DNA of 64,000 bases. Origin: Scenedesmus sp. PABB004 (lineage: Eukaryota). The DNA lies in contig JABVCE010000009.1 in NCBI GenBank assembly GCA_014905635.1, forward strand, positions 434,001-498,000. Reading direction: 5' to 3'. Under the pieces are notes generated by a model that was not told the DNA's origin, searched no databases, and worked only from the letters and a program-made list of their open reading frames with translations. Both the position numbers and the translations under genes were made by a program. Below are positions 8,299 through 19,300 of the stretch, piece after piece; positions within the stretch are counted from its first letter, which is position 1, and the number at the start of each line of letters is the position of its first letter.

Positions 8299-11200
8299 AT
8301 GGCCGCGCTGGCGCCCTGGCGCTGGCCGGCGGGCGGCCTGAGCGCTCCCCGGGAAGGGGGCGGCTGGTGGAGCCTGCACGGCCTGGCGCTGCTGGCGGCG
8401 CTGGCGCTGGGGTGCGGCGCGGGCGGCGCGCCATTCGCTGCTGCCTCCCGCGGCCCCCGCGCGCCGCGTGCCGGCCTCGGCCCGCCCACCCTGCCCCACC
8501 CGCGCGGCGCGTCCCGCAGCTACTCCTACGTCGTCCCCACGCTGGCGGCGGGCGGCTGGCTGGTGCGGGGCGGCCAGGGGTGCCAGCTCGGCCGGGGCGC
8601 CCTGTGTGGACACACGATGGCACGCCGCGCCGCCCCCGGCCCCCCAACCCCGCGCGCCCGCCGCCGCAGGCCTCGCCCTCGCTCGCCGTGGCGCTGCTGG
8701 GCCTGGCGGTCGTGCAGCGCGCCCGCCTGGCGGCGGCCCCGCCCGGTGCGGCGCCGCGCGGCGCCCAATTGCCCGCGCCGCAGCCGCCGCCGGGCGCGGG
8801 CGGGCCCCAGCGACCGCCGGCCCGCGCGCGGCGCGGCGGCCGCGCCCGCGCGCGCCGGCGCGCCGCGGCCCGGCCGGCGCGATGCTGCCGAGATGCGCGG
8901 CGGCGCCGGATTGCGCGCGCGCCACGGCCCCGGCGCGCGCCGCCGACGCCCCCGCGCGCTGCCAACGCGCCCCGCAGGCTGCGGCAGCGGCCGCGGCGCC
9001 GCGGCGGACTGCGGCGGCGCGGCGGCGCGACCGCGCGGCGGCGCTGGCGGCGGCGGCGGTGGCAGCAGCGTGCAGTCGTTCCGCCTGGCGCAGGGCAACT
9101 TTGCAGACCTGTCGTGCGGCATCGCGCCCAGCTCCACCAGCACGGCTAGCTACGGATGCGGGGGGAGGGCGCGCCGGCGGCGGCTGCCGCGCGTCTCGAT
9201 CGAGGTGCGTGGGCCGCAGCTCCGCCCCCGGCTCCCCGCGACCTGCGGCGCCCCCAGCCGCTAGCGGCGGCGCTAGCGCCGGCCGCGGCGCGCTCACGCG
9301 CCGCCGGCGCCCGCCGCCCGCCCGGCGCCGCCGCAGCTCACGCCGCTGCCGCGGCTGTCGCTGGAGTTCCAGCAGCACAGCGGCGGCCGCGCGCGGCGCC
9401 TGGGCGGCGGCGGCCCCGACGACTGCGCGCTCTTTGGCGCGCGCTGGCAGCCGAGCATGGTGCGCATCCGGTCGGGCCAGGACCTCCAGTCGCTCGGCGA
9501 GGCCTGCGACGACTGGGCGGCCGCGCGCGGCGCCGGCGCCGGCGAGGAGGCTCCGCCCTGCGCGTGCGAGGCGACCGAGTCACTCGGCCGCGGCGCGCTC
9601 GCGCCGGAGCACGCACACCTGGACGAGGTGCGGCGCCGCGCTGCGAGGCGCCGGGGCCGGGCCGCCGCCGGTGCCGCCGCCGCTGCAGCGGTCGCGCAGG
9701 CGGCCGCCGCTGGCAGCGCCTGCGCGCCGCGCCGGCGCGCGTTTGACCGCCCGCCGCCCGCCGCCCGCGCGCGCCGCCGCGGCGCAGGTCATCAACGAGG
9801 CCCACCTGCTGCAGGTCGGCGCGATGCTGGGCGAGGCGTCGAGCCGCGCCGCGCTCGCGGCGCGCGAGGCGGGCGGCCCGGTCGGGCACCCGGGCAGCTT
9901 CTACGGCAGCGCCGACACCGACGCGTGCCTCGGCCCCTGGGACCTGCTCGTCGCCGAGGCGAGCGCGAGCGTGCTCTACTGGGCGTGGCGCCGCCCGCTG
10001 CGCAAGGGCCTGCACATGTACATGACCCGCAGCGTCTTCCTCGGCGCCAGCCCCGCCGAGCTGCGCGCGTTCATGGCGGACGACGCCTTCCGCGTCGTCT
10101 GGGACGCCGCGATGCTCGTGCTGCGCCCGGTCGGCGGCGGCGCGGGCGCCGGCGGCGGCAACGCGAGCGTCGAGGCGATGGCGGCGGCGGCCGCGGCGCG
10201 CGCGTCGTCGTCGGGCGGCGGCGGCGGCGGCGGCGGCGCCGCCGACGGCCCGGCGTCCCCGTTTGCGGACGCGGCGGGCGCGGCCGAGGCGGGGCAGCGG
10301 CCGGAGGCGGTTGCGGCGCTGCTGCAGACGGAGGTGCTGCCGCACGAGAACGGCGTGCTGCAGGCGCTCGTGCAGTTCCCCAAGCCCATGGCGAGCCGCG
10401 CGTACCTCTACGCGCGCCGCGTGTGGCCCCGCCCGTCCGACGGCGGCTGCTACTGCCTCTCCAAGGCCTGCGCGCCGCCGGGCGGCGGGGCGGCGCCGGC
10501 GCTGCCGGCGCGCGGCGTGTCGGTGGACGACTACGTCTCGGGCTGCGTCGTGCGCGCGCCCGCGCCGGGGCTGCTGCCGCGCGGCTACGCCGGCCCCGCG
10601 GCCGAGGTGTTCATGGTGTACTTTGAGGACAGCCACGTGCGCCCCGGCCTGGCCAACCTGGGCATCAAAAAGGGCCTCTGGCCGCTCGTGCAGCGCACCG
10701 ACAAGGCCCTGCGCGTGTACCAGGCCGGCGCGGCGGCCAACGCGCACCTCGCGGCGGGCGCCGGCGCCGGCGCCGGCGCCGCCGCGGCGCGCGCGCCGAC
10801 GGAGGCCGGCGACGCGGAGCGGCCGGCGCCGGCGGCGCCGCTGCGGCGCAGCGTGTCGATGCCGAGCCCCAGCGCGCTCAGCCGGCAGGGCTCGCTGCAG
10901 GCCGGAGGCGCGGCGGGCAGCGCGGCGGGCGCGGCGCTGCCCGCCAGCCCCGCCAAGCCGGCGCCCGCGTCGGCGGCGGGCGGGGGCGCGGCGGCAGGCG
11001 CGCGCGCGACCACCGACGGCCAGCGCGGCGGCAAGGCGGCGGCGTCCGCGTACGCGGCGGCGGACGCGGGCGGCTGGTGGGGCGCGCCTGCGCGCGCCCT
11101 GGGCGGCGCCGTCAGGGGCGCGGGCCAGCTGCTCGCGGCCGCGTCGGTCGCGCTGTGGCGCCTGCACACGCGGCTGGCGCTGATGGTGCCCGCCCTGGAG

Positions 11201-12067
11201 TGGCGCCTGCTCCGCTGGCTGCTGCGCACCCTCGCCGCGCCGGGGCGGCTGCTGCTGGGCGCGCCGGCGGCGGCGGAGCCGAGGGCGCTGCGCGGCGTGA
11301 GCAGCCACCCCATCGGCGACTGGGCGCACCCGGGCGCGCTGCCGCGCCTGCAGGCGAGCAGCGCGGGCCCGTCGCTGCTGCGCGTCGCGTCGCACCCGCT
11401 GGCGGCGGAGGAGCTGCAGCGCGCGCTGGAGGAGGCGCCCGCCTGCGCGTCGGGCGCCCGCGCGCCCGCGCCGTCGCGGCTGTGGAGCAGCGGCGGCGGC
11501 AGCGCGCGCGACGCGCCGGCGCCGCCCGGCGTGCGCGCCCACCACTGCGGCAGCTGCCCCGGGGCGCTGCGCGGCGGCGGCGACGATGCGGCGCCTGATG
11601 CGGGCACGCCTGCGAGCAGCCGCTGCGGCTCGCTCGGCTGCGCGAGCGCAGCGTCGTCGCTGCGGCACTGCTGCGGCAGCGCGAGCTGCCGCACGTGCGC
11701 CGCCAGCCTCGACGCGCTCCGCGCGACGCACAGCGCGGATCCGCCCCGTGGCGGCGCAGCCAGCGGGAGCAGCGCCGGCGGCTGTTCCTGCTCCTGCTCC
11801 TGCTCTGCGGCGTGGGAGGCCGCCTCGCTGACCGGCAGCGACGCCGCGGCGGCGCTCGGCGCGAGCGCGAGCGCCTGCGGCAGCGCCTGCTGCGTCGGCG
11901 GCCGCGGCGCGGGCGTGTGCCTGCGCAGCAGCTGCGGGGGCGGCTGCGGCGGCAGCCTGCGCGTGAGCGCGGGCGGGCGCCGGCAGCGCCGCCTGGTCGT
12001 GCGGCTCGTGCAGGCCGCCGGCGCGCGCGTGGCGCACAAGCTTCTGTCGGCGCTGGAGCAGCCGTGA
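8299..12067 (+). CDS. START (lipid-binding, STARD2/7-like) domain protein with hydrophobic N-terminus and Cys-rich C-terminal tail
   Basis: Main exon (about 9788-12067) encodes YWAWRRPLRKGLHMYMTRSVF..ASPAELRAFMADDAFRVVWD..VQFPKPMASRAYLYARRVW..CYCLSKAC..FMVYFED..GIKKGLWP, typical of plant/algal START proteins. 5' exon structure is approximate. Confidence 0.8.
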
Positions 12068-13148: not shown

Positions 13149-15531
13149 ATGGTGGCGCTCACCTACTCGCTGCGCGTGGCGCGGCGCGGCCCGGCGGGGC
13201 CGCAGGCGGCCGGCGAGGCGCGCACGTCGCTGCTGGAGCTCTCTGAGCCCGGCGCGACCGTGGAGGACCTCAGGAAGCGCGTGGCCGCGAACCTGGGTGC
13301 GGTGGCGGGGCTGGGGCGCGTGCGCGCTGCCAGCTGCAGGCCGGCGGTGTCCGCACGCCGCCGGCGCAGCGCACAGCAGCAGCGCGGCGCGCCGCCAACT
13401 TGCTCCCCGCTCGCTGGCGCAGGCTTCCCGGCCCTGATTTACGCGGTGGGGCCCAGCCTGGACACGTCTGACCACCTTTCCCTCAACCCGTACGAGCGCG
13501 TGTGCGGCGACAAGTTTTACGTGCTCGACGGCCAGCTGGCGCGCCACCGCGGGCGCGTGCGCAGCATCCACTACGACGGCAGCCTGCGCAAGCTCGCCAC
13601 GTTTGCCGAGGTCACGGCCGCGCCCGTCGCGGTGGAGCTGGAGGCGGTGGAGGTGCCCGCGGCGGCCACGGGCGCGCCGTTTGAGGTGCACGCCAAGACG
13701 CTGATCGGCAAAGTCATCCCGCTGAGCGTCAGCGCCGACACGACGGTGCTGCAGGTCCAGCAGATGATCCAGCAGCGCGAGGGTGCGTGCTCGCTGCGCC
13801 GCGCCGCGCTGTGCTTGCAGGCTGCGGGCGCACACCAAACGGCCGCGCTGCACCGCGCCGCCGCGCCGCACTGACTGGGTAGGGATTCCTGTCGGCCAGT
13901 CGCGCTACATCTTTGCCGGCAAGCAGCTGGCGGACGAGCAGACCCTCGGCGATCTGGGCCTGCGCCCGCCCGCCGTGGCCTCTGCGCACGCAGCGGCGGC
14001 CGCCGGGCTGCCCTGGCTCGCGGCCGCGCGCACCGGGGCGGAGCGCGACGCGCCGCCGCCTGCCTCCGGCGCCGTCCCAGTCATCCACCTGGTGTCGCGC
14101 CTGCGTGGCGGCATGTTCCATGTGACCAGCGGGCGCGCCGACAACCACGTGCCCCTGCCGCTCGCCGAGACCCAGGTCACGGTCGTGCTGCCGAGCGGCG
14201 CCGAGGTCGCGCTGACCGTGCCGCCCGAGATCACCGGCGGCGCGCTGCTCGCGCGCGCGCTCGCGCCGGCGGCGGAGCAGCCGCCCGGCGCGCGCGCCGG
14301 CGACGCCGACACAGCGGCAGCGGGGAGCCCTGGGCAGCAGCAGCAGGACGATCTGGCGCGCCTGCTCGCGCGCGTGCGCGAGCTGCGCATGCGCGCGGGC
14401 GGCGGCTTCAGGGCCTGGGGCAAGCGCGAGTGGGCGGCCGTGCTCGCGGCCGAGGACGCGCTGCGCCTGTGCCCCGAGACGCAGGCCGCGTACGCGGCCG
14501 CTGAGCAGCAGGACAGCGCCACGGACTGGCTGGAGGTGACGGAGGGCCTGCAGCGCCGCGTGCTGGCCGAGGCGGGCGTGGACGGCGGCGCGATGCACGT
14601 CGCGCTCGCGGAGCTCCGCGCCGCGCCGCACCGCCACGCCGCGCTGAAGCCACTGTGCCTCTACCACCGCCACCAGCGCGCGTGGGACGGGCCGCCCGTG
14701 GGCAGCGCGGTGCCGCCCGAGCTGCGGCTCGCGCCGCCGGGCGCGCCGGGCGCGCGCGTGCGCCTGCTGGACGCCTTCACCAGCCCCCGGCACGAGCTGC
14801 TGGTGGTGTTTGCCGGCAGCCACTCCTGACCCCCGTTCCGGGCCATGGTGCAGCCCATGGCCGAGCTGGCGGAGGAGTTTGGCGGGCTCGTGAGCTCGGT
14901 CGTGGTCTACATCGCCGAGGCGCACGCAGGTGTGCGCTGCGCGCGCTGCGCGCCGCCGCGCCGCGCCGCCGCGCTCGACTCGGCCTCGCCCGCGCCCCCG
15001 CCCCACGCGCGTGCGTCGCCCGCCGCAGAGGACGAGTGGCCCATCAAGAGCAGCCGCTTCAACGGCGGCCGCGGCCCCGTGTGCATCCCGCAGCACGCGA
15101 CGACCGCGGCGCGCTGCGTGGCCGCCGCGGCGTTTGCGGCAGCGTTTGGGCTCCGCCTGCCGCTGCTGGTCGACCCCGTGCCGGGGGAGGAGCGCGGCGA
15201 CGGCAGCGACCCCGGCGCCTGGCTCGCCGCGCCCGCGCCCGCGCCCGCGCCGGCCCAGCCACCCGCCGCCGCCGGCGCCGCAGCGCCGGCGGGCGGCGCG
15301 CCGCGCAGCTGCCTCGGCGGCGCGTGCGCGGCGCCGCCGGGCGCGCGGCGCGGCTACGTGGGCCTCGGCCGCAGCGGCCCCTTCGACGCGGCGCTCGCGC
15401 CGTGGCCGCTGCGCTTCTACGTGCTCGACCGCCGCGGCGTGCTGCGCTTCAGGGCCGACCCACGCGACTGCGCGTACGACATCCTCGAGCTGCGCGCGTT
15501 CCTGCAGGGCGCGGCGGCGCGGCCCGCGTAG
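13149..15531 (+). CDS. Ubiquitin-like domain / iodothyronine deiodinase-like selenoprotein fusion (Sec at TGA 14827-14829)
   Basis: Exons 13149-13296, 13423-13782, 13883-14929, 15029-15531 (all GT-AG). Ubl part: FEVHAKTLIGKVIPLSVSADTTVLQVQQMIQQRE|GIPVGQSRYIFAGKQLADEQTL...IHLVSRLRGG. Deiodinase part: LLVVFAGSHS-U-PPFRAM..VVYIAEAHA|EDEWP..QHATTAARCVAA..LLVDPV..APWPLRFYVL. SECIS in the 3' UTR. Confidence 0.88.
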
Positions 15532-15590
15532 CCGCGCGCGCGCGCGCGCGGGAGCGGGGGCGGCGCGCCAGCGCGGCGGCGGCGGCGGCG

Positions 15591-15674
15591 GCGGCGGGCT
15601 GCCATGACGGCGGGGCCCCCACCCCGGGCGCGCGCGCCCGGGCGGGCCCCGCCCGACCCCCGCCTGCCCGCCGC
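15591..15674 (+). promoter_or_regulatory. SECIS element (form 2, C-rich apical motif)
   Basis: Helix I GCGGCGGGC 15591-15599 / GCCCGCCGC 15666-15674. Core ATGAC 15604-15608 / CGAC 15654-15657. Perfect 10-bp helix II 15609-15618 / 15644-15653. Apical mini-stem 15623-15630 / 15635-15642. Lies 60 nt after the stop of a gene with an in-frame TGA. Confidence 0.82.
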
Positions 15675-15818
15675 ACGCCGCACGCCGCCCGCGCTGGCGT
15701 GCTTGGCTCCCCCTGCGTGCTGCTGTGTGCTCGACCCAGTTGAACGCGCGAGTTGACCCCACACGCGCCGCCCGCGGCCCTCGCGCGACGGCACGCCACT
15801 CGGCAGCGGCGCTGCGCA

Positions 15819-16066
15819 GCTGATGGTCGCCGCCCATGGCGCTGCGCTGCGCCCGGGCCAGGGGCGCTCGTCGCGCTCGTCGCGTCGACAACCACGTGCC
15901 CCTGCCGCGGCGCGCTGCCCACTCGATCGCGCACGGCCAGGGCGGTGCTGCCCCCCGCGTGCCGGGCGGCGGCGCCGCTGCCGGCGCGGCGGAGCTGGGG
16001 CGGGCGCCTGGCGCGCCCTGGCCCGGGTCCTGCCTGCAGTGCGTGGTGGTGGCGCCCGGTCTGCAG
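15819..16066. repeat. Diverged inverted copy (about 250 bp) of 24396-24657
   Basis: Colinear reverse-complement similarity, including a 38-nt exact match (16029-16066 vs 24396-24433) and a 22-nt exact match around the ARID gene ATG (15819-15840 vs 24636-24657). Confidence 0.9.
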
Positions 16067-16335: not shown

Positions 16336-19300
16336 ATGACGCGCCTCCTCCTGGATCGCGCCGTCCCGCGCCTGTTTGCCAAGCGCGCCTCGAAGGCCGC
16401 GTACTCGAAGGCCGAATTTCTCGAGGACGCCGCGCCGCCTCGCGACTCGGAGCCCCAGATCCTGGACGGGGAGCTGGCGGAGGCTGATCAGGGGGAGCAG
16501 ATCACGGCGGCCGAGCCCCCGGCGGCGGCCGAGCCGGCCGCGGCGGCCGAGCCCATGGATTCGCTGCTGCCCTGCGGGGAGCCCGCCAGCGACGCGCCGG
16601 CGGCGGCTGCCAGCGAGGCTCCCAAGAAGCGCAAGGGCCTGCTCGAGCTGTTCCACCTCACCAGGGCCCGGGACAAGCAGGCGGCGGAGCAGGGCGCGCC
16701 GGCGCCGGCGCGCTACAAGGCGATCCTGCGCCGCCTCGCGCGCAAGGCCAGGGCGCCCGCGCCCGCGCCCGCGCCCGCGGCGCCCAGGCCGGCCAAGGCC
16801 GCCAAGGTGCGGCGGCGAGCGCGGCGGCGGTGCGCGCACGCGCGCGCGCATCGGCTCGGTGCGGGCTCAGGCCGCCGCGCGCGCCCCGCCCCCGCCGCCC
16901 ACGCTGCGCGCAGAAGAACCCGCACGCCCTGCACGCCGCGGCGTGGCGCACCGACGTCGCCGAGCTGGGCGCGCTGCTCGATGCCGGCGGCGACACGTCG
17001 AAGCGCGACCGCGCCGGCCTGACCGCGCTGCACTACGCCGCGTGGCAGGGGAGCGTCGAGGGCGTCGAGCTGCTGCTCGGCGCCGGCGCCAAGGCCGACG
17101 CGGCCGACCCGGAGGGCATGCTGCCGCTCCACTTTGCGGCGTGGTTCAACCGCCTCGACGTCGCGGCGCTGCTGCTCGACCGCGGCAGCGCGCTCAACCC
17201 GCCCGCGCGCGGCGGGCAGTGGCCGACGACGCCGCTCATCTACGCGGCCAAGATGGGGCACGCCGACATGGCCGCGCTGCTCATGGAGCGCGGCGCCGAC
17301 GTCGCGGCGACGTACAAGGCCGCGAGCAGCGCGCTGCACGAGGCCGCGTGGGCGGGGCACGCGGCGGTGGTCGCCGAGATGCTGCGCCGCGGCGTGAGCC
17401 ACGACCTCGCGACCTCGGTGCGGCCGCGCGCCGCCGCCGCCGCCTCCGCCGCGCGCCGCCGCCGCGGCCAGCCGCGCGCCGGGGCTTGCTTGCACGCGCG
17501 GCCCACCCCGCGGCCCACCCCGCCCCGCCCCTCCCCGCCGCCGCCGCCCGACCCGCCGCGCAGAAGAGCAAGTACCGCCCGCTGCACCTGGCGGCGATGA
17601 GCGGCAGCACCGCGGTCGTGGCCGAGCTGCTCGCCCAGGGCGCCTGGGTCGACGCGCGCTCCCAGGCGCGCCCGGACGCGCGCGCGCCCGATCACGGCGG
17701 CGCGGCGCGGCACACGGCGTGGCCGCACCGCCCTCCCTCACACGCGCCCGCCGCCCGCCGCCGCCGCGCGCGCAGATGGGGCGCACGCCCCTTCACCTTT
17801 CTTGCGAGAAAGGCCACGTCGGTGCCGCGGCCGCGCTGGTCGCGGGCGGGGCCGACCTGCTCGCCAAAGACAGGGTGAGGAGCAGCGCACGCGCGCGGCA
17901 CGCGCCGCGCTGCACCCAGACCGCGCGCGCCGCGCGCCGGCTCGCGCCGCGCGCCAAGCTGACGCCGCGCGCCTCCGCGCGCGCGCGCGCGCGGCGGCCG
18001 GCCGGCGCAACCCCCCCCCCCCCCGCCCCCCAGCACGGCTTCACGCCGCTGCACCTCGCGGTCGACAACAACCACACCGCCCTGGCCAAGCTGCTCCTGG
18101 ACAAGGGCGCCACGCCCGACGCGCCCGACGCGGTGCGCCGCCGCCCGCGCCGCCGGCCGCGCCGCGCGCGCGCCGTCGCCGGCCCACCGCCGCGCGCCGA
18201 CGCTCACCCGCTCTCCCCGCCCGCCCCCGCGCCCCCAACCTCCCAGCACGGCGCGCTGCCGCTCAACTTTGCTCACGACCCCGACTTCTTCAAGCTCCTC
18301 CGCGCCGTGCGCTGGTACGGCGCCGCGAGCGTGCCGAGCGGCAACAACGCGCGCAGCCGGCGCTACGTGAGCGCGTTCGAGGCGGCGGCCCCCGTGGGCA
18401 CGGCGGCGGCGGGCGCGGGCGCGGGCGACGCGCTGCGCGCGTCGACATCGAGCGAGGCGGCGGGCGCGGCCATCGCGGCCGCGGCGCAGGCCGCGCAGGC
18501 GCGCGCGGGCGGCGGCGGCTGGCTTAAGGCGCTGCGCTCGCGCCCCGCCGCCGTGGCGGCGGCCGCCGCGGCGCCGGGCAGCAGCGCGCTGACGGCGCCC
18601 GAGGACCGCGCGGCGCCCGCCGCCGACGGGCCGGCGGCGGCCGAGCCGCCGGCCGCCAGCCCCGCCGGCAGCGCGCGCAGCGGCGAGAGCGCCGCCGCGC
18701 ACGCGGCGGCGGTGAGCATGGCGCACCAGGCCGTCCAGGCGGTCGTAGAGCGCGCCGCGGTGGAAGCGGCGCTGGAGCAGCTCAAGGCCAGCCAGGGCGG
18801 CGCGCAGGGCGAGACCGCGGCGATCGGCGGGCCGCCACCCGCCGGCGCGCCCGCCGCGGCGCCTGGCGCGGCGCGGCTGAGCGCCGACGACGCGGCGCTG
18901 CTGCAGCAGATCCGCACCGCGCTCAGCGCCGGCGGCGACGACGTGGCCGCGTCGCGCCGCGGCAGCTCCGCCGCCTCGCCGCTGCCGGCCACGGCCGCCG
19001 AGGTCGACGAGGAGGAGGTGCGCGGCGCGGCGCGGCACGGCGGGGGGGGGGGGGGGAGCAGGAAGGGAGGGGCGGCGGGCGCGGCCGCAGCCCGGCTCCA
19101 GTCCAGTCGCTGGCCTGCGTGTGCGCGCGCCGGGCCGAGCTTAGCGCCGTGCTGCGCCGCGCCGCCGGGCACGCGCGCGCAGGTCCGGCTCGAGCAGTTC
19201 CTGCGCCAGCCGGCGAGCATCAGCTGCGACGCGCCCGCGCCCGCGCCCGCGCCCGCAACCTCGGACGCGGACGAGGGCGCGGGCGACGTCCAGGGCAGCT

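Follow-up and report, generated by a model that had tools for sequence, protein, structure and literature searches.

A ubiquitin-like domain with a conserved Gly-Gly-Met junction in a deiodinase-like selenoprotein gene of Scenedesmus sp. PABB004

A predicted gene of Scenedesmus sp. PABB004 encodes a ubiquitin-like domain (Ubl) that ends in LRGG, followed directly by a methionine and then by a deiodinase-like enzyme with an in-frame UGA codon. A sequence-only reading of this DNA had taken the LRGG-Met junction for a site at which deubiquitinases could release a modifier and a free selenoenzyme. The questions are whether the junction is likely to be cut, what would be released there, and why it has been kept. 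The window, meaning the whole stretch of DNA that was analysed, comprises 64,000 nucleotides with a base composition of ~80% G+C throughout; all coordinates below are those of the window, and the gene lies on the plus strand.

The gene has four predicted exons (13149–13296, 13423–13782, 13883–14929 and 15029–15531) and three introns, all GT-AG. Joined, the exons give a frame of 685 amino acids that is open across all four, its sole internal stop being the UGA at 14827. The first exon starts with ATG, has its GT donor at 13297, and encodes the first part of a 135-residue N-terminal extension, possibly a very divergent beta-grasp; the extension runs to 13679 in exon 2, where the first half of the Ubl begins at 13680. 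A 100-nt intron within the Ubl (13783–13882, GTGCGT...TAG), absent from the earlier reading, is predicted to be excised, joining the exon 2 segment that matches positions 4–32 of the Pfam ubiquitin family to the segment that matches positions 34–61. The second half of the Ubl (13883–14112) ends in HLVSRLRGG. The LRGG at 14101–14112 and the ATG at 14113 were confirmed, and the frame reads HLVSRLRGG/MFHVTSGR (the slash marks the predicted cut), with the cut site and the conserved motif after it spanning 14101–14136. Downstream lie a strand-strand-helix segment (14170–14260), a linker helix (14329–14397), a family-specific helical domain of no Pfam family (14422–14655, pLDDT about 75–92), and the deiodinase-like core, which begins at 14677 and continues through exon 4 to a TAG stop. 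Among the matches listed, the closest named homologues of the protein are green-algal.

Several features of the neighbourhood were also recorded. A 28-nt sequence at 15881–15908, 350 nt beyond the stop, is a 96% identical copy of 14134–14161, just past MFHVTSG; similarity continues more weakly past this copy, and the whole resembles a decayed partial duplicate. The next gene downstream on the plus strand (16337–17600) encodes ankyrin repeats. A long upstream frame on that strand (8342–12067) resembles, by eye, a START-type lipid-transfer domain, and the raw frame has no Pfam match.

Joined across its intron, the Ubl is 111 amino acids long, 35 more than ubiquitin, and is identical to ubiquitin at 37 of 76 positions (49%). 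The residues kept are K6, L8, K11, R42, I44, K48, H68, V70 and R72 to G76; those changed are K27, K29, K33, K63 and L71, the last to serine. In ubiquitin, R72, R42 and the L8-I44-V70 patch have roles in E1 recognition, and all of this surface is kept in the window Ubl, with Ser in place of L71. The Ala/Pro insertion of about 35 residues noticed earlier is present (at about 13966–14070), and it is probably coding because the green-algal relatives P0055, P0129, P0130 and P0131 have shorter insertions at the same place. An intron was also considered here and is unlikely, since the GT and AG dinucleotides checked by eye are out of phase and relatives carry insertions at this site. The matching loop of ubiquitin may be contacted by USP enzymes. 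With this identity, the insertion, and the loss of K27, K29, K33 and K63, the domain falls outside canonical ubiquitin and polyubiquitin; as a beta-grasp ending in LRGG and followed by a residue other than proline, it has the form of a ubiquitin-fusion precursor.

The partial Ubl-like segments previously described on both sides of this domain are doubtful. The upstream 135 residues match the N-terminus of a Hariotina protein (E 6e-10) and did not match the family Ubl profile (E 0.25); the exon 2 part matches Hariotina P0005 with E 8e-12. The downstream segment is common to green-algal relatives and was modelled as strand-strand-helix, a possible partial beta-grasp, with pLDDT under 50. By eye, MxHxTSGR resembles the worn first hairpin of a second ubiquitin. 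The model of the whole exon 3 protein was of low confidence (mean pLDDT 55), and neither the fold search with it, at E < 0.001, nor a word-based homologue search with the exon 3 protein returned a match.

In the enzyme part, the first section of the core (14677–14929) contains S-H-S-Sec-P-P and Y-I-A-E-A-H; excision of a predicted 99-nt intron (14930–15028, GT...CAG) restores the conserved motif EAH-x-x-D-E-W, and exon 4 (15029–15531) encodes motifs common to full-length homologues. The core matches Pfam T4_deiodinase with E 9e-6, which is below the curated cut-off, and the Dio2 chain 9h48 with E 8e-6. By sequence, the UGA at 14827–14829 (residue 485 of 685) is read as selenocysteine (Sec), because homologues end exactly at this position (49 of the 150 listed), homologues in Glomeromycota have Cys there, and a SECIS-like hairpin lies 73 nt past the stop. 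This element (15585–15675) has two helices and an AUGAC...CGAC core at 15604, with CC replacing the usual AA. Its stability has a z of −2.98 (3 of 200 shuffles were as stable), and its helix II has 10 of 11 pairs, as did 1 of 2000 shuffles. Of 11 homologous genes examined, 6 are followed by a similar AUGAC hairpin in which 8 or more of the 11 pairs form; three of those that lack one have short 3' ends. An Rfam search gave no SECIS family match and three matches at chance level. Judged on sequence and folding, the gene thus belongs with the deiodinase-like selenoproteins, having both a catalytic UGA and a SECIS-like element.

A fungal homologue, P0051, gave a confident model (mean pLDDT 85). 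Its enzyme part superposes on Dio3 (4tr4) with Z 21.6 and an rmsd of 2.5 Å over 167 residues, and on Dio2 (9h48) with a TM score of 0.80, which makes it a thioredoxin/peroxiredoxin fold bearing the deiodinase insertion; the fold searches barely covered the helical domain. Its Ubl is about 76% identical to ubiquitin chains, with an rmsd under 1 Å. Residues 74–80, at the junction, have pLDDT under 50 and are disordered between two well-folded domains, so that in this model the junction appears flexible and exposed. A complex prediction of the Ubl-tail with the enzyme part of P0051, made without alignments, scored 0.11 against a mark of 0.34. Of the catalytic relay residues named for deiodinases (PMC11592359, in the part of the article available), three in the active-site loop (Glu, His and Trp) do not vary among the 13 full-length rows. 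The second relay His is found in 6 of the 13 rows and is present in the window protein.

Conservation of the junction was assessed in DNA with a pattern in which H68 and M[FY]HxT[ST]G[RS] were fixed and residues 70–72 and 74–76 were free. Two viral and 84 metagenome loci were found; after removal of three chance matches outside Ubl domains and merging of duplicates, 70 distinct junctions remained. Both glycines are kept in 68 of these, the two exceptions (L058 and L080) each lacking one, and all four glycine codons are in use. By residue, the counts were 53 for V70, 55 for L71, 60 for R72, 65 for R74, and 69 each for G75 and G76; L73 was kept in 69, a count partly fixed by the scan pattern. 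By comparison, a terminal GG is found in 6 of the 59 other Ubl domains of the same proteins, a redundant set. On these alignments the GG/M junction is under strong, junction-specific conservation, and the expectation that LRGG-MxHxTSGR would be kept in homologues was borne out. The same pattern matched three times in prokaryote genomes, never in a Ubl.

An exhaustive protein search had 315 matches, of which 150 were listed, many of them polyubiquitins; among those listed, the complete domain order is found in Chlamydomonas sp., Edaphochlamys, Hariotina, three Glomeromycota and metagenomic records. GG/M is found in 11 of 12 rows of the enzyme-bearing alignment, and in P0049, which also bears the enzyme, the Ubl-like repeats lack GG. 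A profile search for longer proteins gave 4 matches, and a word-biased search added 119 proteins, those named being from Rhizophagus, Paraglomus, Klebsormidium, Adineta, Pavlovales, Chromera and Alexandrium. Many members have a near-ubiquitin domain, with a median identity of 67%. Conservation extends beyond the predicted cut to M-[YF]-H-x-T-S-G-R and covers a total of about 11 residues past GG; the tails can be as short as 14–15 amino acids (L009, L016). An N-terminal Xaa-Xaa-His forms an ATCUN metal site. Exposure of such a site by cleavage was rejected as a general explanation, since His occupies the third position past the cut in 49 of the 74 proteins of the word-biased set (Asp in 12, Gln in 10, Asn in 3); the window protein has His. 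The linker after the motif takes varied inserts in P0062, P0088, P0171, L008, L039 and L093, including ZZ zinc fingers (Pfam) and, by eye, Tudor-like and SAM-like segments. The Chlamydomonas sp. gene model P0004 has two complete Ubl-enzyme units in tandem, with the Sec codon region skipped in both.

The Ubl and the enzyme are not always one uninterrupted frame. In the metagenome loci, the enzyme is usually downstream in the same frame, behind one stop codon in a variable linker ahead of the helical domain. Twenty-four of the 70 junctions continue in frame past a stop into enzyme-type sequence, 42 are of a terminal type, and 4 run off the contig. The terminal type means that the enzyme gene is absent from the available DNA, and some of these loci are on short contigs. 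Of the 24, 17 were detected by profile with exactly one stop, and 7 by a recognisable continuation, one of them a broken copy. None of the 70 is a stop-free fusion; such fusions are found elsewhere, in the window gene, whose linker helix (14329–14397) has no stop, and in the ORFs P0031, P0043, P0064, P0068, P0278 and P0279. The eukaryotic gene models P0004–P0006 could conceal a stop behind a called intron, and a hidden intron may likewise remove the stop in individual metagenome loci.

The linker stops are 21 TGA, 2 TAA and 1 TAG. CAR follows 15 of the 24 linker stops, compared with 3 of the 42 terminal stops, and 6 of the 24 match CARYYA exactly. No Met lies between the stop and the enzyme in 16 of the 17 profile-detected loci. 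Half of the 24 loci (12) are paralogue-like members of a single rotifer-like group, and the whole set represents about nine lineages; the loci thus lack independence, and P values calculated from them are inflated. In that group (L023, L028, L032, L034, L045, L065, L070, L074, L076, L077, L079 and L086), all three stop codons occur in a CAA-stop-CAA type of context, and many sister copies end at the stop without an enzyme. CARYYA has been described as a readthrough signal, and the relatives share the contexts of programmed readthrough, CARYYA or UGA-C (PMC4132726, in the part available); the comparison applies to these relatives and not to the window gene, which has no linker stop. One mRNA in the leaky-stop relatives would appear to need both readthrough and Sec recoding. 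The alternative that the linker stop is purely a second Sec codon is disfavoured, as TAA and TAG occupy the same context, an argument that leaves the TGA cases compatible with it.

A third arrangement is found in viral DNA. A search by enzyme sequence alone gave three viral loci, and the Ubl gene adjoins in all three; the two genes are about 800 bp apart in L001, and L103 has two copies of the Ubl gene. The same adjacent pairing occurs on low-G+C, gene-dense metagenome contigs (L037, L042 and L067), and in partial form at contig edges (L052 and L027). No enzyme gene lies near the Ubl gene of L002 or of three other viral loci, and searches with single viral proteins returned the query locus alone. 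In the viral-type genes, GG/MxHxTSG[RK] is kept with about 14–60 residues following, the enzyme being a separate gene. Past the enzyme stop, L001, L037 and L042 have AUGAC hairpins with AA-rich loops, which resemble eukaryotic SECIS elements in viral or virus-like DNA. Tandem Ubl-tail genes are present in L022, L082 and L103, each with an N-terminal domain common to virus-like members. The parts of the family thus recur in three arrangements: fused, joined via a leaky stop, or as adjacent genes.

These arrangements bear on the purpose assigned to the junction by the sequence-only reading. Since GG/MxHxTSG[RK] is kept where the enzyme is a separate gene, with only about 14–60 residues following it, freeing the selenoenzyme cannot be its general purpose; the Ubl with its tail is often made on its own. 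An excess of Ubl over selenoenzyme, as the sequence-only reading proposed, agrees with the family, in which an extra leaky stop precedes the enzyme in many relatives. The proposed link between selenium status and product ratio is less secure in the window gene itself. Nonsense-mediated decay may blunt the link here, the UGA being 100 nt upstream of the last intron. By its conservation, cleavage after GG is likely in the family, and for the window junction itself it is quite probable that cutting occurs at all. Conjugation is less supported by the alignments than cleavage, because R72 is kept in 60 of 70 junctions and each glycine in 69 of 70; that the released Ubl of the window gene would be conjugated is rather doubtful.

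The reading favoured here, which is probable on balance, is that the family consists of a processed Ubl-tail precursor and a dedicated, usually scarcer Sec enzyme partner, the two being permanently fused in the window gene. The first part would be a ubiquitin-like precursor of the form Ubl-LRGG/M[YF]HxTSGR-tail, and the second a soluble selenoenzyme of deiodinase fold that carries a helical domain of its own. A deubiquitinase-type protease would cut after Gly76, as in ubiquitin-ribosomal-protein precursors; ubiquitin precursors are cleaved fast (PMC8122580, in the part available). In the window gene the predicted products would be a 246-residue extended Ubl ending in GG and a 439-residue Sec enzyme part starting MFHVTSGR, and in this fused form, unless translation stops at the UGA, cleavage would be the sole route of separation. 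What matters functionally is probably the new N-terminus, serving as a signal for recognition, and the Sec enzyme, at low stoichiometry, probably acts on the Ubl-tail module or together with it. Some observations weigh against this reading. The window Ubl is divergent from ubiquitin, with L71 changed to Ser and the insertion in a possible USP-contact loop; P0049 has repeats without GG, and two of the 70 junctions have lost a glycine. For many Ubl-tail genes (the 42 terminal-type loci and L002) the DNA examined contains no enzyme gene, and the 24 readthrough loci represent about nine lineages.

The strong conservation past the scissile bond is a further difficulty, as it is not expected with generic cutting enzymes, and it would fit an uncleaved motif equally well. 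On that account RGG-M[YF]HxTSGR would be one continuous binding motif, its glycines kept for recognition and not for release, for example by imitating a linear ubiquitin linkage and thereby trapping or recruiting a deubiquitinase, an E2 or an E3. The conservation is unbroken across the bond, a free peptide as short as the 14–15 residue tails would vanish quickly, and the divergence of the window Ubl also suits an uncleaved module. However, a near-ubiquitin domain with Met at P1' should be cut by generic enzymes (PMC8122580), and the P0051 model has no ordered fold-back of the junction; an uncleaved module is considered unlikely. Two-sided conservation, tight gene linkage and a low enzyme-to-substrate ratio set by readthrough would all be explained if the selenoenzyme were itself the processing or transfer enzyme, its Sec attacking the Gly76-Met bond of the partner with the help of the conserved His and Glu and with recognition of both sides of the bond, and the Ubl being released or transferred via a selenoester. 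The invariance of the Glu, His and Trp of the active-site loop in all 13 full-length rows agrees with this, and there is a recorded case of a peroxiredoxin-fold protein that bears a Ubl (Ahp1-Urm1, chain 7q5n, among the fold-search matches of P0051). Against it, both fold and residues match a reductive dehalogenase or peroxiredoxin, and many Ubl-tail genes have no enzyme gene nearby; we know of no protease with a deiodinase- or peroxiredoxin-type fold, and this account is very improbable.

A self-contained Ubl system, in which the Sec enzyme would recognise, cut or transfer its own Ubl at GG/M[YF]HxTSGR without E1 or E2, in protists, algae, fungi, rotifers and giant viruses, with the ratio of the two set by readthrough and selenium supply, is a speculative reading and quite improbable. 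It is also very unlikely that the Ubl is a simple leader that aids folding or expression, is cut off to free the selenoenzyme, and is then conjugated like ubiquitin. R72, R42, L8, I44, V70 and K48 are kept in the window Ubl as such a role would suggest, and ubiquitin-enzyme fusions such as that with NiSOD exist in algae (PMC6332867, in the part available), but a leader leaves the same junction in passenger-less genes unexplained, and R72 is more variable than the glycines. The preferred reading of a processed Ubl-tail with a dedicated Sec enzyme can also be set beside known systems.

Ub-eL40, Ub-eS31, FUBI-eS30 and polyubiquitin (PMC8122580) are likewise a Ubl ending in LRGG with a passenger, for which a cut after Gly76 is expected, and FUBI is, in the part of that article available, a divergent Ubl in which GG is retained and for which no conjugation has been reported. 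Unlike these precursors, the window Ubl is internal, behind its 135-residue extension, and is divergent with an insertion; the residues after GG are a family motif that does not depend on the passenger, which is either the selenoenzyme or a short tail. The algal fusions of ubiquitin with NiSOD, IMP and actin (PMC6332867) are likewise patchy ubiquitin-enzyme fusions beside stand-alone enzymes, but neither a leaky-stop nor a viral two-gene form is described in the part of that article available, and its main text does not contain 'deiodinase' or 'selen'. With Dio2, Dio3 and the DI-like selenoproteins (PMC11592359; bioRxiv 10.1101/314781, both in part), the family shares the fold, as judged by the homologue P0051, and the window protein has the Ser, Sec, Tyr, Glu, His, Trp and second His. 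In contrast to Dio1–3, no transmembrane anchor is seen in its sequence or models, and it has instead a Ubl module and a soluble, family-specific helical domain. By these sequence tests, the window protein is neither a canonical ubiquitin nor a vertebrate deiodinase, and it does pass as a ubiquitin-fusion precursor.

The two-part Ubl-selenoenzyme system is apparently undescribed. A search of the main texts of open-access literature gave no description of the fusion or the motif. In the parts available, the preprint that names DI-like proteins (bioRxiv 10.1101/314781) leaves ubiquitin unmentioned, the algal selenoproteome PMC7539508 lists other fusions (its supplements or database could hold such genes), and PMC6627142 has nothing on a Ubl-deiodinase fusion. 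Databases label some members as ubiquitin- or deiodinase-domain proteins. In the leaky-stop relatives, double recoding would hide the fusion from annotation, its halves being listed separately as 'ubiquitin' and as hypothetical proteins.

Few ubiquitin precursors combine a new N-terminus that is conserved with an enzyme partner dedicated to them. The giant-virus contigs with both genes and SECIS-like hairpins suggest a role in host-virus conflict. The link between the ubiquitin system and a deiodinase-like selenoenzyme is a lead to the role of such enzymes outside animals.
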